64,000 bases of DNA from Patescibacteria group bacterium. GTDB lineage: Bacteria > Patescibacteriota > Minisyncoccia > Phycocordibacterales > UBA9973. Below the pieces are notes generated by a model, which ran no database searches, was not told the origin of the DNA, and saw only the letters and a program-made list of their open reading frames with translations. Position 1 is the stretch's first letter, and each line of letters begins with the position of its first letter. Shown here one piece after another: positions 405-46,620 of the stretch. The DNA is taken from NCBI GenBank assembly GCA_040390725.1, contig JAZJXT010000005.1, positions 13,301-77,300 on the forward strand. The letters run 5' to 3'. The translations under genes and the position numbers were made by a program.

Positions 405-1304
405 ATGGCAAACAGGCACCTTTCCAGATCAATAGTGCTCCAGACGCTTTTCGAGTGGGATTTTAACGGCGCAAAAGAAGTCGACTTTAAGGAAATTGTA
501 AATCGTGACTTGAAAGAATATGCCCCTGGACTCGAGGATGATGTTTTCGTGTCCGCGCTTTTGGATTCTGTGGTAAAAAAGAGAACTATTATTGATGAAA
601 TTATTGAGAAAGCTGCGCCTGACTGGCCTTTAGAAAAAATCTCCGTTGTTGATAGAAATATCTTGAGAATAGGTTTGGCTGAGCTACTTTTTGGCGACAG
701 GAAACAAGTGCCTCCAAAAGTCGCTATCAATGAAGCCATTGAGCTGGCGAAAACTTTCGGCGGAGAAAATTCTAGTAAATTTATAAATGGAGTTCTCGGT
801 GCTGTTTACAAAGAAATAGGTGAGCCAGGCAAGGACGAAACGAGCAAGAGCAAAAAGCCCGATGAGCCGGTAGATGTTTTGACGTTGCCGGTAGAAAAAT
901 TTGGCGGGGCGCTTATTTTTTCAAAAAAAGGATCTGACTTATATTTGGCATTAGTTCACGATGTCTTTGGATATTGGACTCTTTCAAAAGGGCACATAGA
1001 GCCTGGTGAGAGTGAAGAAGATGGCACGATGAGAGAAATAAAAGAAGAAACAGGGCTTGATATAAAAATTATAGAAAAGTTGGGTGAGAACGAATATATT
1101 GCAAAGCACCCGGAAAAAGGAAAAATTTTAAAAAAAGTCACTTATTTTTTAGCAGAAAGCGAATATAAAGAATTAGTATTAGAGCAGTCAGGCGGGCTCG
1201 ACGGAGCTAGATGGTTTCAGCTTTCTGAAATTCCTGAGCTTCGCATTTATAACGATATTATACCGTTGATTTCAAAAGCGATTGAGATTATTAGTAAGGG
1301 GTAA
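405..1304 (+). CDS. nusB: NusB antitermination factor fused to a C-terminal NUDIX hydrolase domain
   Basis: N-terminal ~150 aa match NusB (RNILRIGLAELLF, PPKVAINEAIELAKTFGGENSSKFINGVLG). The C-terminal ~140 aa carry a perfect Nudix box GHIEPGESEEDGTMREIKEETGL (GX5EX7REUXEEXGU). Confidence 0.8.
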   Translation: MANRHLSRSIVLQTLFEWDFNGAKEVDFKEIVNRDLKEYAPGLEDDVFVSALLDSVVKKRTIIDEIIEKAAPDWPLEKISVVDRNILRIGLAELLFGDRKQVPPKVAINEAIELAKTFGGENSSKFINGVLGAVYKEIGEPGKDETSKSKKPDEPVDVLTLPVEKFGGALIFSKKGSDLYLALVHDVFGYWTLSKGHIEPGESEEDGTMREIKEETGLDIKIIEKLGENEYIAKHPEKGKILKKVTYFLAESEYKELVLEQSGGLDGARWFQLSEIPELRIYNDIIPLISKAIEIISKG

Positions 1305-1324
1305 GACCTCACCCTAAAAAATTT

Positions 1325-4328: not shown

Positions 4329-4712
4329 AACCTCACCCCAGATTCAAAGTATCTCACCCTAAGATTCAAGGAACCTCACCCCATCCGCCAGCTGGCGGAC
4401 TCTCCTTATTAAGGAGAGGGGGAAAATACAAAATTCAAATCGGCATGACTATTTTTTATAACAAATCTAAAAATTTAACTAAAAGAATTTTATTGAGACA
4501 ATCTCAAACTTCTCAAGAAGTAATGCTTTGGGGAAAATTAAGAAATATAAAGAATATGACAAGCAAAGGTCTGATTATTTATCGGTATTTAATATCAAAG
4601 TAATTCGTTTTTGGAATAATGAAATAAATACCAATATAGAAGGTGTCATATTAAAAATTATTGATGAGTTGAATTCCCCCTCTCCTTAATAAGGAGAGGG
4701 TAGGGTGAGGTT
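4329..4712. mobile_element. MITE-like non-autonomous element: imperfect terminal inverted repeats flanking a decayed DUF559 endonuclease gene
   Basis: Left end: 2.5 tandem copies of cctcaccc(c)agattcaa(a)g (4331-4382), palindrome ccgccagctggcgg (4386-4399), palindrome tctccttattaaggagaggggg (4401-4422). Right end 4676-4712 ccccctctccttaataaggagagggtagggtgaggttc is the reverse complement of the left end minus the ccgccagctggcgg piece. Confidence 0.55.
4445..4700 (+). pseudogene. DUF559 (Vsr-like endonuclease domain) gene remnant, internally deleted and frameshifted
   Basis: Frame 1 from ATG 4445: MTIFYNKSKNLTKRILLRQSQTSQEVMLWGKLRNIKNMTSKGLIIYRYLISK* (DUF559 N-terminal pattern LRxxxTxxExxLWxxLRN). 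A second frame from ~4603 gives VIRFWNNEINTNIEGVILKIIDELNSPSP* (DUF559 C-terminal RFWNNEV..LEGVL). The ~60-aa core between them is missing. Confidence 0.55.
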
Positions 4713-4772
4713 CTGCTGGATTTATAGTAGTCGCAAAATAAGCCTTATTTATAAGGACTTTCTATATTTTAG

Positions 4773-28887: not shown

Positions 28888-28980
28888 TTCTCCTCTTGAG
28901 GAGTACCCCGACAGCAGTCGGGGGGAGGTGGAGAATTTATCCACCCCGTCTCGCAAGCGAGCCACCCCTCAAGAGGGGAA
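28888..28980 (+). other. GC-rich four-helix structured element immediately upstream of uvrA (unknown RNA or repeat)
   Basis: Outer inverted repeat cctcttgagg (28891-28900) / cctcaagagg (28967-28976) encloses hairpins ccccgac-agca-gtcgggg, ggtgga-gaattta-tccacc and ctcg-caag-cgag. It is about 60% GC in a genome of roughly 33% GC. Confidence 0.4.
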
Positions 28981-28989
28981 TAAAATTTT

Positions 28990-31602
28990 ATGCAAAAAAA
29001 TAAACCAACAACTGAAGGTAGCATTATAGTCAAAGGCGCGCGGACGCATAATTTGAAAAATGTGACGGTGGAAATGCCTCGCGGGAAAATGATAGTTTTT
29101 ACCGGTCTTTCGGGGTCGGGGAAAAGCTCGCTGGCTTTTGATACTATTTTCGCCGAAGGGCAGAGGAGATATGTTGAATCTCTTTCTTCTTATGCGCGCC
29201 AATTTTTAAAACAAATGGCAAAGCCGGATGTGGATGAGATAGAAGGTTTGAGTCCCGCGATTTCTATCGACCAAAAATCCCGCTCGAATAATCCGCGTTC
29301 GACAGTGGCGACTATCACGGAAATTTATGATTATCTGCGTGTCCTTTATGCGCGCGTGGGGCGTCCGCATTGTTTAGTGTGCGGAGATGAAATAAAAAAA
29401 CTTTCCAATGAAGAAATTATAAAATTCGTGATGGACAAGGTGCAAGAGGTCGCACCTCCAAGAGGAGGAACGACCTCTAAAAATACAAGAAAAGTAATGG
29501 GCGTAGAATGGAACGAAACCCCGATACAAATTTTTGCGCCGGTAGTGCGAGGCAGAAAAGGGGAATATTATCAATTGCTTTATGACTTGCTTGGTAAAGG
29601 TTATGCCAAAGTCCGCGTGGATGGCGTGATGAAAATTTTGCGCGAACGCATTGATTTATCAAAAACAAAAAAGCATGACATTGATGTTTTGGTGGATGAA
29701 TTTTCCGCGCACGAATTCGCCGGTAAAGATATAAAAGATGTGGAATTACGATTAGCAGAATCAGTTGAGCGAGCATTATTAGAATCAGATGGTTTGGTAA
29801 AAATAATAATAAATAAAGAAGAAACTTTATTATCTGCAAAATTTTCTTGCCCGAAAGACGGTTTTTCTTTTCCGGAAATAGAACCACGACTTTTTTCTTT
29901 TAATTCTCCGCATGGAGCTTGTCCTGTTTGTCACGGCCTCGGCACCAAGCATATGTTTGGCGATGATGCTTGCGATGAATGCCAAGGAAAAAGATTGCGC
30001 CCGGAAGCATTGAAAGTATTTTTGTCAGATAAAGAAACCAGCATTGTGGATTTCACCGCAATGTCTATCGAAGACGCAGTAGCATTTTTTAATAAATTAA
30101 AATTAACGGCGCAAGAAAAAGAAATTTCCGCGGTATTATTACGCGAGATTTCTTCGCGTTTGGAATTTCTTTTAAATGTCGGTTTGGAATATTTATCGCT
30201 CGACAGGCGCGCGAATACTTTGTCCGGTGGGGAAGCACAAAGAATTCGCCTCGCTTCACAGCTCGGCTCCCGGCTCGTCGGTGCATTATATGTTTTGGAC
30301 GAGCCGACGATAGGCTTGCACCAAAGAGACAATGAAAAACTTATTAAAACGCTTACAGATTTGCGTGATTTAGGGAATACGATAATAGTCGTCGAGCATG
30401 ATGAAGACACTATTTATTCTTCGGATTATATTGTGGATATCGGTCCGAAAGCCGGCGTGCATGGCGGAGAAATTATAGTTGCGGATTATTTAGATAAACT
30501 TTTAACCGCGCCAAAAAATACTTCAAAGTCTCGCACCTTGGCATACTTGAGAGAAGAAACGAGAATTGAAATTCCAGAAAAAAGACGCGAGGCAGAAAAA
30601 GGCAGTATAAAAATAGTTGGTGGGAAAATTTTCAGTATTAAAAATTTGAATGCGGAAATTCCACTTGGCAGATTAGTTTCCATTACCGGTGTTTCTGGTT
30701 CAGGTAAGAGCTCTTTTATGTATGAGATTTTGCACAAGAATTTGCAAGCAAGATTCGAAAGGAAATATCGGAGCGCTCAAGTTTTTAATTGCTCATCTTT
30801 TTCAGGGAGCGAATATTTACAAAGAGCGGTGCTAATAGACCAAAGTCCGATAGGCCGGACACCTCGTTCGAATATAGCTACATATACCGGATCATTTACT
30901 TTCATTCGTGATTTATTCGCTGAGACGGAGGAAGCGCGTTTCCGTGGGTGGAAGTCCAATAGATTTTCTTTCAATGTCAAAGGCGGACGATGCGAAGCTT
31001 GTGAAGGCAATGGTGAGATAGCTGTGGAAATGCATTTCTTACCTACCGTGTATGTCACTTGCGATGTGTGCAATGGCAAGCGTTTCGATAAAGAAACTTT
31101 GAAAGTAAAATATAAAAAGAAAAATATTTATGAAGTTTTGCAAATGACTGTGGAGGAAGGTTTGAAATTTTTCGATGAAATTCCTGCTATTTCTGATAGA
31201 TTAAAAAGTTTAGCTGATGTTGGTTTAACTTATGTAAAATTGGGGCAAAGTGCTACTACACTTTCCGGCGGGGAAGCTCAACGTGTGAAAATATCCAGCG
31301 AGCTTTTCAGGCCGTATTTGGAAAAGACAATTTATTTACTCGACGAGCCGACTGTCGGGCTTCATTATGATGATGTGCAGAATTTGATAAATGTTTTGGA
31401 AAAATTGGTGCACAAAGGGCACAGTGTCGTAGTCATCGAACACAATATGGACCTCATAAAATGTTCTGACTACATCTTAGACTTTGGTCCCGAAGGAGGC
31501 GACAAGGGTGGAATGTTGATAGCCAAAGGCACACCGGAAGAAATAGCGAATCATCCGAAATCTCATACTGGAAAATATTTAAAGAAAGTGTTGAGGAAAT
31601 AA
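28990..31602 (+). CDS. uvrA: excinuclease ABC subunit A
   Basis: Two ABC cassettes (GLSGSGKSSLAFDTIFAEGQRRYVESLS; GVSGSGKSS), zinc-finger cysteines, and LSGGE signatures. Confidence 0.95.
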   Translation: MQKNKPTTEGSIIVKGARTHNLKNVTVEMPRGKMIVFTGLSGSGKSSLAFDTIFAEGQRRYVESLSSYARQFLKQMAKPDVDEIEGLSPAISIDQKSRSNNPRSTVATITEIYDYLRVLYARVGRPHCLVCGDEIKKLSNEEIIKFVMDKVQEVAPPRGGTTSKNTRKVMGVEWNETPIQIFAPVVRGRKGEYYQLLYDLLGKGYAKVRVDGVMKILRERIDLSKTKKHDIDVLVDEFSAHEFAGKDIKDVELRLAESVERALLESDGLVKIIINKEETLLSAKFSCPKDGFSFPEIEPRLFSFNSPHGACPVCHGLGTKHMFGDDACDECQGKRLRPEALKVFLSDKETSIVDFTAMSIEDAVAFFNKLKLTAQEKEISAVLLREISSRLEFLLNVGLEYLSLDRRANTLSGGEAQRIRLASQLGSRLVGALYVLDEPTIGLHQRDNEKLIKTLTDLRDLGNTIIVVEHDEDTIYSSDYIVDIGPKAGVHGGEIIVADYLDKLLTAPKNTSKSRTLAYLREETRIEIPEKRREAEKGSIKIVGGKIFSIKNLNAEIPLGRLVSITGVSGSGKSSFMYEILHKNLQARFERKYRSAQVFNCSSFSGSEYLQRAVLIDQSPIGRTPRSNIATYTGSFTFIRDLFAETEEARFRGWKSNRFSFNVKGGRCEACEGNGEIAVEMHFLPTVYVTCDVCNGKRFDKETLKVKYKKKNIYEVLQMTVEEGLKFFDEIPAISDRLKSLADVGLTYVKLGQSATTLSGGEAQRVKISSELFRPYLEKTIYLLDEPTVGLHYDDVQNLINVLEKLVHKGHSVVVIEHNMDLIKCSDYILDFGPEGGDKGGMLIAKGTPEEIANHPKSHTGKYLKKVLRK

Positions 31603-31638: not shown

Positions 31639-32022
31639 TTAATGCCAAGTTTGAATGAAGAATTTATAACTTAAATTTTTTTCTAAAATTTCTTTTGTAA
31701 ATTCTCTGTTTCCTTCTTCACCATAGTCAATACTATCTTCAGAGATAAACACGGAATCTTTTTGTTTCTTTAGTCTACCACCACCATATTTTCTGATTAA
31801 GCTAATAGCTGCTGCCTGGTCTATTGAAAATTTTTCTTTCAACTCTTTAAGAAAGTTATAAAAAATTTCAGCATGACTATCATCATCAGCGTATGTTTTG
31901 CCAATTCTAATAACTGAATGTTTTTGTTTTTTAAACTTCAAATCGAATCTTAAGAATTTACTTCCCCTGTCATTTATATTTGATGGCAGGAAATTAGTCT
32001 GAGGAACAATTGTTAAATCCAT
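31639..32022 (-). CDS. hypothetical protein (127 aa)
   Basis: Intact ORF between uvrA and uvrC with no recognisable family. Confidence 0.4.
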   Translation of the reverse strand: MDLTIVPQTNFLPSNINDRGSKFLRFDLKFKKQKHSVIRIGKTYADDDSHAEIFYNFLKELKEKFSIDQAAAISLIRKYGGGRLKKQKDSVFISEDSIDYGEEGNREFTKEILEKNLSYKFFIQTWH

Positions 32023-32075: not shown

Positions 32076-33347
32076 ATGCAAAGTCAAGCGTTAAAAAATT
32101 ATAAGTTGCCGGACAAACCGGGAGTTTATTTTTTTATGGGTTCAAAGCCACGAACAAAAACCTCACCCCCGACCCCTCTCCATTTTAAAGAAATGGAGAG
32201 GGGAGGAATGCCGAAGGCAGGAGGGGTGAGGGAAGAAATTCTCTATATCGGCAAAGCGACAAGTTTGAAAGACAGGGTAAAGAGTTACTTTGGTAAAGAT
32301 TTATTTAATACTCGTGGGCCGTTGATTGTGGATATGGTAACGAAAACCACAAGTTTAAAATGGCAGGAAACTGACTCAGTTTTGGAAGCGCTTATTTTGG
32401 AAGCGAATTTAATTAAAAAACATCAGCCATATTACAATACAAAAGAAAAAGATGATAAAAGTTTTAATTATGTTTGCATAACACGTGATAAAAAAATTAT
32501 GTTTGTGCGCGGAAAAGTACTAGATATAAAAAAATATAATTCTGTTTTCGGACCTTTTCCATCTGGTAGTCAACTTAAAGATGCTATGAAAATTGTGCGT
32601 CGAATTTTCCCATATATTGAAGAGAGAAGGGGTGCAAAAGGCAAAGAAGAATTTTATAAACAAATAAAGCTTTTCCCATTAGATTCAAAAGAAAATACAA
32701 ATAACATTAAAAACATAAAACTATTTTTTGAGGGCAAGAAACAAAAAGTAGTAAAGAACTTAGAAAAAGAAATGAAGATGCTTGCGCATGAGCATGAATT
32801 TGAACAGGCAAATGAAATAAAGAAACAGCTATTTGCATTAAAGCACATCAATGATGTTGCATTAATAAAAGGAGATTCTTTTGGAGGCTCAACCTCCAAA
32901 AATTTCAGAATTGAAGCTTATGATATAGCTCATATGTCAGGACAAAATATGGTGGGTGTGATGACGGTTTTGGAAGATGGCGAAGTAAATAAAAATGAAT
33001 ATAGAAAATTCAAGATAAAAAATTATGATAGTGCGAATGACACCGGAGCATTGTTGGAAGTTTTAGAAAGACGTTTTAATCATTCCGAGTGGCAATATCC
33101 GAAATTAATTGTGATAGACGGAGGCAAGGCACAGCTGAATGTAATTAAAAAATTCCAAGCTCGCGTCGGGTTCGCTATTCCGTCAGTGGCGGTAGTGAAA
33201 GATGAAAGGCATAAAGCTAAAGGCATTTTGGGTGACAAAGAAACTATAAAAAAGTTCGAAAAAAGCATTTTACTAGCAAATGCCGAAGCGCATAGGTTTG
33301 CTATCAAATATCACATAAAAACACGCAAAAATAGCTTTTTGGGGTAG
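32076..33347 (+). CDS. uvrC: excinuclease ABC subunit C, short form lacking the C-terminal (HhH)2 domain, with an in-frame palindromic-element insertion in the GIY-YIG domain
   Basis: GIY-YIG (PGVYFF...ILYIGKATSLKDRVKSYF), UVR motif (EFEQANEIKKQLFALKHI), endonuclease domain (RIEAYDIAHMSGQNMVGVM). Ends at 423 aa. Confidence 0.85.
   Translation: MQSQALKNYKLPDKPGVYFFMGSKPRTKTSPPTPLHFKEMERGGMPKAGGVREEILYIGKATSLKDRVKSYFGKDLFNTRGPLIVDMVTKTTSLKWQETDSVLEALILEANLIKKHQPYYNTKEKDDKSFNYVCITRDKKIMFVRGKVLDIKKYNSVFGPFPSGSQLKDAMKIVRRIFPYIEERRGAKGKEEFYKQIKLFPLDSKENTNNIKNIKLFFEGKKQKVVKNLEKEMKMLAHEHEFEQANEIKKQLFALKHINDVALIKGDSFGGSTSKNFRIEAYDIAHMSGQNMVGVMTVLEDGEVNKNEYRKFKIKNYDSANDTGALLEVLERRFNHSEWQYPKLIVIDGGKAQLNVIKKFQARVGFAIPSVAVVKDERHKAKGILGDKETIKKFEKSILLANAEAHRFAIKYHIKTRKNSFLG
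32161..32232 (+). repeat. 72-bp imperfect palindromic element (CCTCACCC...GGGTGAGG termini) inserted in frame inside uvrC
   Basis: cctcacccccgacccctctccattt | taaagaa | atggagaggggaggaatgccgaaggcaggaggggtgaggg. It encodes the extra peptide ~KPRTKTSPPTPLHFKEMERGGMPKAGGVRE between conserved GIY-YIG blocks and shares termini and the CTCTCC core with the element at 4329-4712. Confidence 0.7.
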
Positions 33348-43401: not shown

Positions 43402-46400
43402 TTAAATCTCTTTCACCGCATCTATTGCAATACTTTTTTCGCCATTGCGGACGGAGACTTTGCCGGAGAGGGCGATGCATTTTTCGGCGACGAGGATGTC
43501 TATGGAACTGCTGAAAGTGGAAGGGAATACTACAGCTTCAATGGTGCCGGTTAGGTCAGAAATTTTTAAGAATGCCATGCGTTCATTTTTTTTCGTTATG
43601 ACTTGGCGGACTGTTTCTATAATGCCTCCTATTTTTACAGGTGTGCCATTTTTTCCTTCCTCAATTATTTTTTTAATATTCATTTCTTTTTTCTCTAGTT
43701 TTTCGCGCAGTCTATCGAGTGGATGTCCGGAAATATAAAGTCCTAATAGTTCTTTTTCCCAAAGCAGTTTTTCTGTCTGCGTCGCCGGAGTTCCATCCCG
43801 TAATTTGAAAGATGGCGCAGAAGTAGTCGGCAGTGCTCCGAAAAGTGAAATCTGATTTGCATTTTGTTTGGAGCTTTCTTTATTGTATTCGAGCATGTTT
43901 TCCAAATTAAAAAGAAGAGTTCCGCGGTCGCTGAATTCATCCATCGAGCCGGACTTTATCAAAGCTTCCATTGATTTTTTATTTAAATTTTTATGTTTTA
44001 TTCTATCCAAGAAATCGCTGATATTTTTAAATTCACCATTAGCTTTGCGTTCAGAAATTATTGCATCTGAGATATCCGTGCCGAGGTTTTTAATTGTATA
44101 AAATCCAAATCTGATATCTCTAGACACCATAGAGGCCGAACCTCCAAGGGGAGGTTCGGCCTCGGAAGGAACTCGAATAACAGTAAATCCGCCATAACTT
44201 TCATTTATATTCGGCGGAAGCACGGGGATTTTCATATTCTTACATTCATTGATTATTTCAGAAATTTTTTCCACATCGCCGGATTCTGCCGTCAAAATAG
44301 CGGTCATGTATTCCACCGGATAATTCGCTTTCATATACGCCGTCTGATATGCGACTTTTCCATAACTCGCCGCGTGTGCTTTGTTGAATCCATAAGCCTG
44401 AAAAGGTTCGAAAAGTTTCCACAATTCTTCAGCGAATTTTTTTGTCTGTCCATTTGCTACTATTCCATCAGTGAATTTTTTATGCTGTGCGGCCATTTCC
44501 GCAGGAATTTTTTTACCCACAGCCTTGCGGAATTTATCGGCTTCCTCCCAGTTATACCCGGCCATTTCGAGCGCACAGAAGAGCAGGTCGTCTTGGTAAA
44601 CGATGAGTCCATATGATTCCGTCAAGAATTTTTTCATTCGCGGGTCCAAATATTTTACCAGCTTTGGGTTATGTTTTCTTTTTATATATTCGGGAATTGA
44701 TTCCATCGGACCGGGGCGGTAAAGAGCTACCATTGCATTAATATCATGAATAGATGTGGGTTTTAGTTCTTTTAAATATCTCGTCATTCCTGAGCCGTTT
44801 AGTTGGAAAAGTCCTTCTGTTTGTCCGCTCGCCAAAAGTGCAAAAGTTTTTTTGTCATCAAGGGGAATTTTTTCTATATCAATATTTATATTGTAGAATT
44901 TTTTTACCAAACTTATTGCATCTCCTAAAATTGCCAAGTTCCTTATTCCCAAAAAGTCGAATTTCAAAAGCCCGGCTTCTTCGATACTGTACATGTCGTA
45001 TTGAGTGATTACTTTTCCTCCTTTCGGGTCGAGCTGAACAGGAGTATATTCATATATTGGTTTTGGTGCGATGACGACGCCCGCTGCGTGCACCGAGATG
45101 TGCCGTACGCATCCTTCTATTTTTTTTGCTAAATCAATTATCTCTTTGGTGTCTTTTTCTTTTTCATAAGCTTCTTTGAGTTCTGGTACTATTTTCATAG
45201 CATGGTCTATGGTCATCGGCATTCCTTGTGAGCCGAGTGGAATCATCTTTGAAATTCTATCACCAATACTATATTCATGGCCGAGAGCTCGCGCTACGTC
45301 GCGCACAGAACCTTTTGCCATCATCGTACCAAATGTTCCTATTTGCGCGACCTTGTCTTCGCCATATTTTTTCTTTGCGTACTCGATCATTTCATCGCGT
45401 CTGTTGTCGGCATAGTCCATATCGATGTCCGGCGGGGAAGGACGGAATGGATTTAAGAATCTTTCAAAGGGTAATTTATATTCTATCGGGTTCACATTTG
45501 TAATGCCTATCAAATATGTCACCATCGATCCAGCAACGGAGCCTCGGATAGTCGTCAAAATTCCATTTTCTTTTGCATGTCGTAACAAATCTCCCACCAC
45601 CAAAAAGTACGGCGAATATCCTTTGTCGCAAATAATTTTCAATTCATATTCTACGCGTTCTTTTATTTCCGGAGTTTCTTTTAAGTCAAGCCGAGCAAAT
45701 CCGGCATAAGTTAATTCGCGTAGTTTTTCATTATAAGTTTTCCCCTCCTCGATTTTAAAATCAGGAAATACCCAAGCCCCTAGTGGGATTTCAACATCGC
45801 ACATATCGGCAACTTTTTTTGTATTTGCGACAGCTTCGGGAATATCTTTGAAAATTTCCAATGCTTGTTCTTCGTTGATAAAAGAAAAATCATCTCCGCC
45901 GAAAGTAAATCTGTTTTCATCTTTTAGGTCGGAGTTTGTTTGAATTGCGAGCAATGTCTCGTGCGCTTTATGGTCTTCTCCGCAAGGGTAATGCGAGTCA
46001 AAAGTCGCTACCATAGGGATATCAAATTTCCTGCTCATTTTTATCAATGCTTCACGTACTTCTTTGTCACCTTCTACTGAGGGGTGCTTCATCACTTCCA
46101 AAAAATAATTTTCTTTACCGAAAATATCTTGATGCTCTTTTATTATCATTTCCGCTTTTTCTTCGTTCTTTGCGTAAAGTGCTTGTGAGAGTTCTCCACC
46201 CAGGCAACCGGAGAGCGCGATGACTCCTTCTGAGTACTTTCGCAAAATTTCTTTGTCCATTCTCGGCTTGTAGTAATATCCTTCGAGGTTTGAAAGTGTC
46301 ACCAAGTGAATTAGATTTTTATAACCCTGCAAATTTTTTGCGAGCAATGTCAGGTGGTAGCGTTTATTGTCTATGCCGGGTTCTTTGTCGAGGCGTGAAC

Positions 46401-46620
46401 GTTCGGCGATATATGCCTCGACACCGATGATGGCTTTGATGCCTTCTTTTTTTGCGAGTTTATAAAATTCAATAGCGCCATACATATTACCGTGGTCGGT
46501 GATAGCCATCGCCGGCATTTTGAATTTCTTTGCCAGAGCCACCAAATCCTCGGTCTTTGAAAGCCCATCCAAGAGGGAGTAATGACTATGCGTATGCAAA
46601 TGCACAAAACCTTGTTTCAT
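43402..46620 (-). CDS. dnaE: DNA polymerase III subunit alpha
   Basis: PHP domain FVHLHTHSHYSLLDG; 1072 aa with polymerase core and OB domain. Confidence 0.95.
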   Translation of the reverse strand: MKQGFVHLHTHSHYSLLDGLSKTEDLVALAKKFKMPAMAITDHGNMYGAIEFYKLAKKEGIKAIIGVEAYIAERSRLDKEPGIDNKRYHLTLLAKNLQGYKNLIHLVTLSNLEGYYYKPRMDKEILRKYSEGVIALSGCLGGELSQALYAKNEEKAEMIIKEHQDIFGKENYFLEVMKHPSVEGDKEVREALIKMSRKFDIPMVATFDSHYPCGEDHKAHETLLAIQTNSDLKDENRFTFGGDDFSFINEEQALEIFKDIPEAVANTKKVADMCDVEIPLGAWVFPDFKIEEGKTYNEKLRELTYAGFARLDLKETPEIKERVEYELKIICDKGYSPYFLVVGDLLRHAKENGILTTIRGSVAGSMVTYLIGITNVNPIEYKLPFERFLNPFRPSPPDIDMDYADNRRDEMIEYAKKKYGEDKVAQIGTFGTMMAKGSVRDVARALGHEYSIGDRISKMIPLGSQGMPMTIDHAMKIVPELKEAYEKEKDTKEIIDLAKKIEGCVRHISVHAAGVVIAPKPIYEYTPVQLDPKGGKVITQYDMYSIEEAGLLKFDFLGIRNLAILGDAISLVKKFYNINIDIEKIPLDDKKTFALLASGQTEGLFQLNGSGMTRYLKELKPTSIHDINAMVALYRPGPMESIPEYIKRKHNPKLVKYLDPRMKKFLTESYGLIVYQDDLLFCALEMAGYNWEEADKFRKAVGKKIPAEMAAQHKKFTDGIVANGQTKKFAEELWKLFEPFQAYGFNKAHAASYGKVAYQTAYMKANYPVEYMTAILTAESGDVEKISEIINECKNMKIPVLPPNINESYGGFTVIRVPSEAEPPLGGSASMVSRDIRFGFYTIKNLGTDISDAIISERKANGEFKNISDFLDRIKHKNLNKKSMEALIKSGSMDEFSDRGTLLFNLENMLEYNKESSKQNANQISLFGALPTTSAPSFKLRDGTPATQTEKLLWEKELLGLYISGHPLDRLREKLEKKEMNIKKIIEEGKNGTPVKIGGIIETVRQVITKKNERMAFLKISDLTGTIEAVVFPSTFSSSIDILVAEKCIALSGKVSVRNGEKSIAIDAVKEI

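Follow-up and report, generated by a model that had tools for sequence, protein, structure and literature searches.

The 71-bp palindromic segment that interrupts uvrC (32161..32231) is very probably a secondarily inserted copy, non-coding in origin, of the BoxC / PIT / TMECO family of intrastrand-triplex motifs, in its palindromic three-helix form. The first-pass annotation of this DNA had missed the membership of the palindrome in a described family. The window, by which we mean the whole 64-kb stretch of DNA analysed here, also ties these triplex repeats to the DUF559 gene family, a tie met again in distant phyla and in E. coli K-12. Hundreds of genomes contain BoxC/PIT/TMECO repeats, which have been on record since the 1990s with no function, mobility mechanism or partner protein assigned to them; the BoxC and PIT elements were reportedly treated by Bachellier in the 1990s and by Hoyne & Maher in 2000. 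DUF559 is a large family that includes E. coli YcjD and has no known substrate. In the small AT-rich genomes of Patescibacteria the repeats sit in frame within essential genes, and this bears on how "lineage-specific loops" are to be interpreted in candidate phyla radiation (CPR) proteins.

Sequence, fold and family of the uvrC element

On the forward strand, to which all coordinates given here refer, the element reads CCTCACCCC cga CCCCTCTCCATTT taaag AAATGGAGAGGGG aggaa TGCC gaa GGCA gga GGGGTGAGG. A palindrome of 72 bp had been reported at this place; it is indeed present, but spans 71 bp, with outer arms of 9 nt and inner arms of 13 nt that are both 100% complementary. Three helices make up the form. 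P1 pairs CCTCACCCC (32161..32169) with GGGGTGAGG (32223..32231), and its 5′ arm, read on the minus strand, is in turn a third-strand block GGGGTGAGG. P2 (32173..32203) pairs CCCCTCTCCATTT with AAATGGAGAGGGG over 13 nt and consists of the pyrimidine and purine blocks of the triplex motif, CCCCTCTCC and GGAGAGGGG, together with a 4-bp A-T extension. P3 (32209..32219) is the mini-hairpin TGCC gaa GGCA within the linker, whose pairing is kept and whose sequence varies among copies. Folded as single-stranded DNA, the element reaches -25.3 kcal/mol on the plus strand, with z = -7.8 on this strand and likewise on the minus strand; as RNA it reaches -45.9 kcal/mol (z = -6.1), and no shuffle matched its fold (n=200). 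The head CCTCACCC occurs 6 times in the 64-kb window against 0.5 expected; one solitary head at 1307..1314, directly downstream of the stop of ORF 405..1304, might be the remains of a unit or have arisen by chance. The data do not support a known structured RNA or ribozyme at the element: no Rfam family attained its gathering score in any part of the window, between 32100 and 32300 a permissive search gave chance microRNA-type matches only, and no tRNA or tmRNA was detected in the window.

The element matches the unit rule of the family, namely CCCTCTCC, a loop, GGAGAGGG, a linker and the mirror block GGGTGAGG (Holder et al. 2015, PMC4666352). Its hairpin CCCCTCTCC(ATTT) / (AAAT)GGAGAGGGG is 100% complementary over 13 nt, and the unit is detected by our triplex-rule scanner. 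On the minus strand, GGAGAGGGG-TCG-GGGGTGAGG supplies the mirror third block, in which G stands opposite G and A or T opposite A; on the plus strand the same triplex blocks recur with a 19-nt linker, the unit being readable on both strands. The 3′ arm of P1 is the third-strand block, a mirror of GGAGAGGGG with one A replaced by T (TMECO table in PMC4666352), and a comparison by eye with Table 1 of that paper shows agreement with the consensus CCCTCTCCC..GGGAGAGGG NNN GGGTGAGGG. Within the window, the scanner found units at two places only, the uvrC element, on both strands, and the right end of the DUF559 cassette described below; the rotated-rule control gave 0 matches at 8 nt and, at 7 nt, one shifted match in the G-rich tail. 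Copies of the family in E. coli were described as always intergenic, with no mobility genes nearby (Holder et al. 2015, PMC4666352). This location is a reported property of the E. coli copies and not part of the definition, and the uvrC element is intragenic. The triplex can form in single-stranded DNA and not in RNA, and Holder et al. found none in double-stranded DNA or in vivo (PMC4666352). Variants of the unit include CCCTCTCC/GGGTGAGG, CCTTCTCC/GGTTGAGG and CCTCCCCC/GGAGGGGG.

Insertion at the uvrC loop and spread of the repeat

The host gene uvrC (32076..33347) encodes 423 aa in an intact frame, with a GIY-YIG domain, a weak UVR motif and an RNase H-like endonuclease domain (Pfam UvrC_RNaseH_dom, E 1.4e-32). 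Comparison with homologues showed that all family-invariant residues are retained in the insert-bearing UvrC. Its Pfam GIY-YIG match starts only at residue 54, with UVR below its cut-off; annotation by Pfam misses the start of the GIY-YIG domain in this protein. The absence of (HhH)2 had been noticed before and is borne out by the lack of a Pfam match, but does not amount to a local truncation: none of the 120 closest UvrC homologues lists this domain, and they have the same short architecture throughout, with a base length of ~395 aa, so that its absence is a lineage trait.

The insert lies between GVYFF and ILYIGKA, in the DNA for the turn that joins the first two beta-strands of the GIY-YIG domain, where the first-pass annotation had put it (between PGVYFF and ILYIGKA). 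The open frame claimed there is real, but the gain amounts to 29 residues rather than ~25-28 when measured against insert-free orthologues, which read FFM(QGS/KNK)-(N/D)ILYIGKA at this loop. These 29 residues correspond to 87 nt, of which the palindrome makes up 71 nt and the other 16 nt are unaccounted for; no repeat indicative of a target-site duplication lies beside the uvrC copy. The element is open in only two of its six reading frames, one of which is used by the surviving uvrC copy. AlphaFold2 places the insert in a loop: residues 26-50, flanked by strand 16-22 and strand 54-61, are modelled with pLDDT <50; the neighbouring blocks are confident (mean pLDDT 85-93). The 29 extra residues are thus predicted to form a floppy surface loop, and we infer that the insertion was kept because this loop tolerates it, not for any usefulness of the peptide.

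It had been argued that orthologues sharing a conserved peptide, rather than a conserved DNA palindrome, would indicate an ancestral loop; the comparison of orthologues gave the opposite picture. The segment is absent from the two closest orthologues (P0002 and P0003), and a more distant one, L001, whose protein is 61% identical, carries the same element family in the same loop. There the element enters the frame in a different phase (at an offset of 75 nt from the ATG, against 85 nt here), the first half of the insert peptide differs (PHPRPLSKIVIL in L001 versus TSPPTPLHFKEM in the window), and both inner hairpins stay paired despite changes in both arms (ATTT/AAAT to AAAAT/ATTTT, and TGCC/GGCA to ATGC/GCAT). 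The two elements are 79% identical, the flanking coding sequences 65-69%. The phase shift, the differing peptide and the compensatory changes show that conservation lies in the DNA palindrome and not in the amino-acid sequence.

Inserts of at least 8 aa occur at this loop in 33 of the 120 homologues, and the inserted peptides fall into families unrelated in sequence, with differences even among members of a single family. All five inserts sampled contain a triplex-rule unit, in varied reading phases, and a G-rich block on the coding strand that adjoins the (E)(V/I)LYIGKA codons; no unit was found in the insert-free L004 and L005. The loop is also interrupted on contigs from other samples, namely L001-L003 (one protein, P0034) and L334, as well as L335 and L336 with variant units. 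The units of the five inserts, with their varied phases, point to repeated insertion at the uvrC loop. Tolerance alone suffices as an explanation for such a hot spot.

Beyond uvrC, a strict 36-base pattern of the three-helix element matched at least 120 metagenome contigs, whose flanking GC ranges between 0.33 and 0.73, and a pattern derived from the published consensus blocks gave at least 120 matches in genomes of many phyla; the chance estimates for both collection scans (~6 for the genome pattern) are rough and presuppose a uniform base composition. In 109 of 122 copies the linker folds into a hairpin, 77 different linker sequences being represented, and the P2 hairpin is extended by a mean of 2.54 additional pairs compared with 0.55 in shuffles, the extensions covarying among copies. 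Across copies, the constraint is shown to act on DNA structure: both hairpins covary, and the G-rich third-strand block always mirrors the purine arm, as in the purine-motif triplex rule. In-frame copies lie within MnmA, QueG, PrmC and a PBP transpeptidase, where Pfam matches span or flank the insert, and the repeats are not confined to intergenic DNA. New with respect to the source paper are the metagenome range, the in-frame copies in genes, the repeated insertion at the uvrC loop and the bracketing of DUF559.

Other readings of the uvrC segment fare poorly against these observations. An assembly or binning artefact, that is, a chimeric join in uvrC, might be suspected in a metagenome-assembled genome, but is scarcely credible: an 82.7-kb NCBI contig has a record of the identical protein, frame and downstream domains are intact, and the same element family interrupts the loop on the contigs from other samples named above. 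The open frame, and the related segment that L001-L003 and L334 carry at this position, would also suit an ancestral, lineage-specific UvrC loop under protein selection with an incidental palindrome. This account is nevertheless very improbable in view of the nearest relatives, which lack the segment, the different reading phase in L001, the compensatory changes that keep the pairing as the peptide changes, a fold z-score of about -8, and the presence of the same DNA in other genes, in intergenic DNA and around DUF559. Finally, the element could have been co-opted in uvrC, either as a regulatory structure of mRNA or DNA (a translation brake, an RNase III site, a replication or transcription pause) or through a Lys/Arg/Gly-rich peptide that adds to UvrC function; both variants would account for the frequent occupation of the loop. 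Its very stable RNA structure starting 85 nt past the start codon, the share of homologues with an insert and the constant position of the G-rich block would favour co-option, which we consider improbable since the closest orthologues lack the insert, the loop peptides come from unrelated families, the same element is found in unrelated genes and intergenic DNA, and earlier work cited by PMC4666352 found PIT/TMECO units inactive as promoters or terminators. An inserted copy of the triplex-motif family remains the reading that we prefer.

DUF559 genes between inverted units

The link to a DUF559-associated element at 4329-4712, drawn in the first-pass annotation, proved sound: there a DUF559 remnant lies between copies of the CCTCACCCC head and CTCTCC..GGAGAG hairpin seen in uvrC. 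The left end of this cassette (4374..4422) comprises the head CCTCACCCC (4374-4382), an extra hairpin CCGCCAGCTGGCGG (4385-4398) and the hairpin CTCTCCTTATTAAGGAGAG (4400-4418), and is preceded by approximately two tandem 22-bp copies of cassette head plus flank (AACCTCACCCCAGATTCAAAGT / ATCTCACCCTAAGATTCAAGG; 4329..4373). The right end (4676..4714), CCCCCTCTCCTTAATAAGGAGAGGG ta GGGTGAGG TTCT, is a canonical triplex-motif unit and an inverted copy of the left end. The flanked gene, assigned by Pfam to DUF559 and MTES_1575, is a pseudogene (4445..4689) with a 115-bp internal deletion, its D..ExD..H core lost and its frame shifted, and its stop TAATAA falls in the loop of the right-hand hairpin. 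This broken copy is the only DUF559 in the window.

The same inverted ends were found at all five CPR-type DUF559 loci fetched (four distinct contexts, the sequences of L010 and L011 being identical), as at the window cassette, and in cassettes the inverted arms are lengthened to (A)AGAACCTCACCC / GGGTGAGGTTCT(T). A 4-5-bp repeat (AATT/GATT) is compatible with the flanks of L007 and L012; the flanks of L010 show none. When genome loci were picked by the DNA unit alone, 7 of the 120 among the matches listed contained a DUF559 gene, each at most 176 bp from the unit, and the other 113 had no DUF559 gene within a stretch of up to 8 kb; two more DUF559 genes abut the three-helix form. On viral contigs, triplex-rule units lie within 250 bp of 9 of the 21 near-full-length DUF559 loci, with 16 units in 16.5 kb near the gene versus 3 in 44.3 kb elsewhere (control 0), and include variant motifs with a covarying third strand. 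This viral link is seen only with the generic triplex-rule scan allowing variant motifs, the canonical unit being found near 1 of 80 DUF559 relatives on viral contigs and the relaxed pattern near 3 of 80; it is restricted to small near-full-length DUF559 genes, and phage-borne partial relatives do not show it. A degenerate unit forms the end of E. coli ycjD, and ~170 bp downstream lies TMECO #9. DUF559 thus stands between inverted units across Patescibacteria, Proteobacteria and Planctomycetota and, in part, at E. coli ycjD; the inverted-unit-flanked loci are the window cassette, L006, L007, L010, L012, L013, L016, L042 and L094, together with L254, L263 and L264, which have variant units.

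In the DUF559 alignment, D53, E64, D66 and H70 are nearly invariant, and the sole solved relative by sequence is PDB 3HRL, a Neisseria DUF559 'endonuclease-like protein' (E 3.5e-18). DUF559/YcjD belongs to the same PD-(D/E)XK branch as Vsr (PMC1189080). Within the literature covered, an incomplete set, no paper was found that links DUF559 to triplex-motif repeats.

We tentatively propose a hypothetical scenario in which (i) a small DUF559 nuclease (YcjD-family, Vsr-like PD-(D/E)XK) would recognise the units as folded single-stranded or cruciform DNA; (ii) its nicks or breaks would promote the copying of units to new sites, as RAYT does for REP/REPIN; (iii) the insert in the uvrC loop would be one such copy; and (iv) with the DUF559 of the window dead, the uvrC copy would now be a fossil. 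Recognition of folded units by DUF559, and copying promoted by its nicks or breaks, is a conjecture that we infer from the arrangement of gene and units and hold with less than even confidence. PD-(D/E)XK nucleases hydrolyse DNA and are not known to carry out strand transfer; DUF559 alone therefore cannot be the transposase. By extension, and just as tentatively, DUF559/YcjD nucleases might be the cognate enzymes of BoxC/triplex repeats in a pan-bacterial REP/RAYT-like system, in which the folded hairpin-plus-third-strand would be recognised and non-autonomous units would settle in frame within the coding sequences of Patescibacteria and other phyla.

DUF559 could instead be a homing-endonuclease-like selfish gene that cuts palindromic unit pairs and is copied in via ~35-bp homology arms, the units spreading otherwise (by template switching or slippage at stalled forks, by gene conversion or by another enzyme), although we regard this as unlikely. 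A Vsr-like homing endonuclease, I-Bth0305I, exists; the gene is always central in an inverted unit pair, and gene-less pairs of both polarities occur (U-U' in L017, L046, L063, L120, L124 and L128; U'-U in L022, L051, L061 and L116). Gene decay in the window and in L102 suits a homing life cycle, and the presence of ycjD in only 3377 of 5426 complete E. coli genomes also speaks for it. However, both ends are complete units, whereas one site split by insertion would give two half-units. Moreover, no locus was found with both filled and empty alleles: E. coli genomes without ycjD have the 8-kb eef efflux operon between fabI and sapF, and with this operon as the alternative allele E. coli offers no empty ycjD site, and thus no empty palindrome, for a filled-versus-empty comparison. 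The cassette of L007 and L012 occupies the same syntenic place in two genomes, which vertical inheritance fits equally well. We thus retain, in the tentative terms given above, the proposal of a nuclease cognate to the repeats.

Comparison with known repeat systems

The units described here share with BoxC/PIT/TMECO elements the block order CCCTCTCC(C), loop, (G)GGAGAGGG, short linker and GGGTGAGGG, with a third block that mirrors the purine arm, and the occurrence as single units, inverted ('palindromic') pairs and arrays in many phyla. In contrast to the E. coli copies, which are intergenic and have no mobility gene, the uvrC unit lies in frame in coding sequence and its relatives bracket DUF559; it further differs by a hairpin with an A-T extension and a 13-nt loop region, and by a 19-nt linker on one strand that holds a third hairpin.

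The parallel with Rickettsia palindromic elements, drawn in the earlier reading, holds as an analogy only, that of in-frame insertion at a site tolerated by the fold. These elements, reportedly described by Ogata et al. in 2000 and 2002, are likewise palindromic repeats located in frame in unrelated housekeeping genes, at fold-compatible sites, and encode a peptide without known function. They measure ~100-150 bp, occur in Rickettsia only and have family-specific conserved peptides (reviewed in PMC10969869). Compared by description only, the uvrC element is different in being 71 bp long, GC-rich in an AT-rich genome, cross-phylum in distribution and subject to the triplex rule, with an unconserved peptide. 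The label MITE-like, used previously, fits the terminal inverted repeats (9-bp perfect arms), but neither a target-site duplication nor a transposase was found. As in MITEs, a small structured element with terminal inverted repeats and no coding of its own has a longer gene-carrying relative with matching ends; unlike in MITEs, this relative encodes DUF559, a predicted hydrolytic PD-(D/E)XK nuclease, and not a known transposase. In contrast to Vsr and I-Bth0305I, DUF559 occurs here without a link to a cytosine methyltransferase and outside an intron or intein context.

REP/BIME/REPIN sequences with their RAYT (TnpA-REP) genes are comparable in several respects, having a ~35-nt unit with a conserved head and an imperfect hairpin, an arrangement as singletons, inverted doublets and clusters, and a small nuclease gene between inverted units that far outnumber the genes. 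The flanked gene here is a PD-(D/E)XK Vsr-like DUF559, however, and not an HUH Y1 (IS200/IS605-like) transposase, and any activity of it on the units is putative. Whereas REP units are species-specific, the sequence of the triplex unit is conserved across phyla, and the unit is also found inside genes.

The uvrC element and its host protein

The uvrC gene of the window (ORF 32076..33347, 423 aa; Pfam UvrC_RNaseH_dom, E 1.4e-32) carries a GC-rich palindromic element at 32161-32231, in surroundings that are AT-rich throughout (GC 33-41% in 2-kb steps). The element reads CCTCACCCC cga CCCCTCTCCATTT taaag AAATGGAGAGGGG aggaa TGCC gaa GGCA gga GGGGTGAGG, and both its outer arms of 9 nt and its inner arms of 13 nt are perfectly complementary, so the palindrome described in the first-pass annotation is present, with a length of 71 bp rather than 72. 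On either strand, folding places a long inner hairpin (P2) and a mini-hairpin (P3) within an outer stem (P1), with ssDNA energies of -25.3 and -24.9 kcal/mol on the two strands (z about -7.8) and an RNA energy of -45.9 kcal/mol (z -6.1); no shuffled sequence folded as well. Against 0.5 expected copies of the 8-mer CCTCACCC, the window contains six.

The closest UvrC homologues, P0002 and P0003, read GVYFFM(QGS/KNK)-(N/D)ILYIGKA, whereas the window protein has additional residues at the same point. The in-frame insert proposed between PGVYFF and ILYIGKA is therefore confirmed with its frame open, at 29 residues instead of the suggested ~25-28. AlphaFold2 modelling with 60 homologues gives confident strands at 16-22 and 54-61 (10-residue block means 93 and 85). 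Since pLDDT is below 50 for residues 26-50, the insert, previously suggested for structure prediction as a possible surface loop, comes out of the modelling as an unstructured loop where the first beta-hairpin turns. The GIY-YIG Pfam match begins only at residue 54 (profile position 13) and the UVR motif is weak; the alignment shows all columns invariant among the homologues to be retained. As had been noticed, a Pfam search finds no (HhH)2 domain in the window UvrC; the best 120 homologues, all Patescibacteria-type short UvrCs of ~395 aa, likewise show no HhH domain, so the missing C-terminus is a lineage trait. The identical protein has been deposited from a Patescibacteria MAG. Directly upstream of uvrC, a 127-aa ORF on the minus strand (31639-32022) matches Pfam Janus/Ocnus (phosphohistidine-phosphatase-like; E 5.6e-5, barely over the curated cut-off), an unusual family for a bacterium.

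A triplex-motif repeat inserted into a tolerant loop

Full-text searching for the end motifs pointed to the repeats of Holder et al. 2015 (PMC4666352). These TMECO units of E. coli K-12, CCCTCTCCC-loop-GGGAGAGGG-CCG/TTA-GGGTGAGGG, are the same as the BoxC repeats known from the 1990s and as Hoyne and Maher's PIT elements. Their third block mirrors the purine arm, and the single strand on its own folds into a purine-motif triplex in vitro, a structure not seen in duplex DNA or in vivo; the units are "always located intergenically", and neither promoter or terminator activity nor a nearby transposase or integrase was found (PMC4666352). Read on the minus strand, the uvrC element gives a canonical unit of this kind, CCCCTCTCC..GGAGAGGGG-TCG-GGGGTGAGG; on the plus strand these blocks are found again, with P3 inside a 19-nt linker. 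A scanner for the triplex rule (8-nt pyrimidine block, 3-15 nt loop, exact complement, 1-32 nt linker, exact mirror with A->T allowed) matched at only two places in the whole window, the uvrC element (both strands) and a DUF559 cassette (right end), with no match for a rotated-rule control. By its sequence, the uvrC element is thus a member of the known BoxC/PIT/TMECO family.

An ancestral loop conserved as peptide would be the alternative to a secondary insertion, and the orthologue alignment proposed in the first-pass annotation decides between them. P0002 and P0003 lack the segment. The uvrC loci L001-L003, three contigs from three different samples, encode one UvrC that is 61% identical to the window protein and carries the same element family in the same loop. 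In L001 the element (72 bp) enters the gene at offset 75 from the ATG, in phase 0, and in the window at offset 85, in phase 1; the first-half peptides are unlike (PHPRPLSKIVIL against TSPPTPLHFKEM), and their later convergence is due only to the L001 loop being one base longer. The pairing of both inner hairpins is nevertheless kept through changes in both arms, and the elements are 79% identical compared with 65-69% for flanking coding DNA. These comparisons show that a triplex-motif repeat was secondarily inserted into a tolerant loop, and that constraint falls on DNA pairing and the mirror rule and not on the peptide. Because only two of six frames are open in the window element and four of six in that of L001, selection for an open frame sufficiently explains the in-frame state. 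The likeness drawn earlier to Rickettsia palindromic elements holds for this in-frame insertion behaviour, and the observation and most of its earlier interpretation stand.

Inserts of at least 8 aa occur at the GIY-YIG beta1-beta2 loop in 33 of the 120 best homologues, in several peptide families. DNA was obtained for three further such inserts (L334, L335 and L336), and all five sampled (with the window and L001) contain a coding-strand triplex-rule unit; a scan found none in the insert-free loci L004 and L005. Two more insertion hot spots lie after core column 126 (12/120) and in the UVR-RNase H linker (48/120), the latter aligning with low-confidence residues 260-275 of the AlphaFold2 model. 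L001 and L334 each hold a second triplex-rule unit deeper in uvrC. Recurrent insert peptides among the homologues (PARIATQNVAGG, IFRPAPFSDYRVGPSDRK, LTLPRVRGGTHTLQK) suggest several more repeat families. In L334:301-1776 (uvrC of a Tagabacteria-type contig; CDS nt about 80-160), GGGGGATGAGGTTCTC supplies the 3' arm of the outer stem, and GATGAGGTTCTC, the same string in L001, encodes the native D-E-V-L right after the element; the canonical cassette terminus for comparison is GGGTGAGGTTCT. A host site mimicking an element end may account for the uvrC hot spot.

Intragenic copies and other palindromes

The pattern CCTCACCCCNNNCCCCTCTCCN{8,20}GGAGAGGGGN{10,30}GGGGTGAGG, searched in a metagenome collection, recovered the three-helix form on at least 120 contigs, with flanking GC from 0.33 to 0.73 among the matches listed. 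Among these copies, a linker hairpin of at least 3 bp, which the pattern did not require, is present in 109 of 122 (77 distinct sequences; linker mean energy -3.86 against -1.43 in shuffles), and P2 gains a mean of 2.54 extra pairs (0.55 in shuffles), its arms showing 14 different sequences. Of the 120 copies listed, 34 sit in a reading frame that is free of stops for 40 codons or more to either side; the Pfam match continues across the insert in MnmA, QueG and a PBP transpeptidase, and lies upstream of it in PrmC. In-frame intragenic copies are therefore general and not confined to the source genome. Many peat and soil copies with flank GC 0.55-0.62 (a subset of L134-L253) are themselves enclosed by a longer conserved imperfect palindrome (..AAGCCGTGGGT.. 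on one side, ..ACCCAGGGCTTACGCCC on the other), giving a composite repeat of about 120 bp.

The window also holds a second GC-rich palindrome family, GAGG(T/C)CG(C/A)ACCTCC nnnn GGAGG..CG.CCTC, in frame in uvrA (29445-29478 in ORF 28990..31602, plus strand; peptide APPRGGTTS, DNA fold z -7.1) and dnaE (44132-44163 in ORF 43402..46620, minus strand; peptide SEAEPPLGGSAS, z -8.4); neither copy obeys the triplex rule. Just upstream of uvrA, a nested palindromic element of 95 nt (28888-28982, z -5.9) has a 14-bp outer stem (TTCTCCTCTTGAGG / CCTCAAGAGGGGAA) around three hairpins, similar to the uvrC element in layout and different in sequence.

DUF559 cassettes and a candidate partner

The suspected link to the DUF559-associated element (4329-4712) is upheld, as the DUF559 remnant cassette at 4374-4714 is bracketed by the same head and hairpin as the uvrC element. 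Relative to the about 96% identical L006, the window copy has lost 115 bp including the catalytic core and gained a 13-nt hairpin at its left end; at 4329-4373, the left head and about 13 nt of flank stand in ~2 tandem copies (22-bp period), single in the orthologous L006. Intact homologues have 119-125 aa with nearly invariant D53, E64, D66 and H70. All five CPR loci fetched, in three different genomic contexts (L010 and L011 being identical), share the left end (A)AGAACCTCACCCC, 2-6 nt, CCCTCTCCTTATTAAGGAGAGGGGG and the right end CCCTCTCCTTAATAAGGAGAGGG(T/C)AGGGTGAGGTTCT, with the DUF559 stop codon within the right-hairpin loop. A reverse search of species genomes with the DNA-only pattern CCTCACCCN{1,8}CCTCTCCN{5,15}GGAGAGG gave at least 120 loci in many phyla. 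Among those listed, a DUF559 gene is present in seven of 120, in each case no more than 176 bp from a unit, and none was found elsewhere in these loci; inverted unit pairs without a gene, in both polarities, and arrays are also present. These non-CPR loci with the gene are ordered hairpin-head, gene, head-hairpin, the mirror image of the CPR order, and two metagenome copies of the three-helix element adjoin a DUF559 gene. These loci show that inverted units flank a predicted nuclease gene in repeated cases.

On viral contigs, the canonical unit is rare near DUF559 relatives (1/80), and triplex-rule units lie within 250 bp of 9 of 21 near-full-length genes, at a density of 16 in 16.5 kb near DUF559 versus 3 in 44.3 kb away (control 0). 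All three blocks change together in the variants CCTTCTCC/GGAGAAGG/GGTTGAGG and CCTCCCCC/GGGGGAGG/GGAGGGGG, a covariation that provides evidence of selection on the mirror rule itself. In E. coli K-12, the DUF559 gene ycjD ends in a degenerate unit with the stop codon in its loop, followed 3' by a duplicated fragment of its own 3' end and TMECO #9 (L133, NC_000913.3 1349500-1352500). Across E. coli, where K-12 (L133) and ABU 83972 (L337) were the loci looked at, 3377 of 5426 complete genomes have the ycjD region; no empty site was found, and genomes without ycjD hold there, between fabI and sapF, the 8-kb eef RND-efflux operon.

We hypothesise that the units work in a folded state, as single-stranded or extruded DNA, are recognised by DUF559 and are copied through the cuts it would make; action as DNA rather than RNA structure is suggested because purine-motif triplexes do not form in RNA (PMC4666352). 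In the main rival reading, DUF559 would parasitise unit pairs in the manner of a homing gene, and the units would spread by another route. To our knowledge, a hydrolytic nuclease alone cannot transpose DNA. We found neither the in-frame intragenic habit of the family nor its recurrent DUF559 pairing in the literature searched, in which no paper links DUF559 to these repeats; "endonuclease" and "DUF" occur nowhere in the text of Holder et al. (PMC4666352). DUF559 is a concrete, testable candidate for the missing partner of BoxC/PIT/TMECO repeats. Although the enzyme class differs from that of REP/RAYT systems, the anatomy matches: the unit consists of a head and a hairpin, inverted copies enclose a nuclease gene, and many units are orphans.
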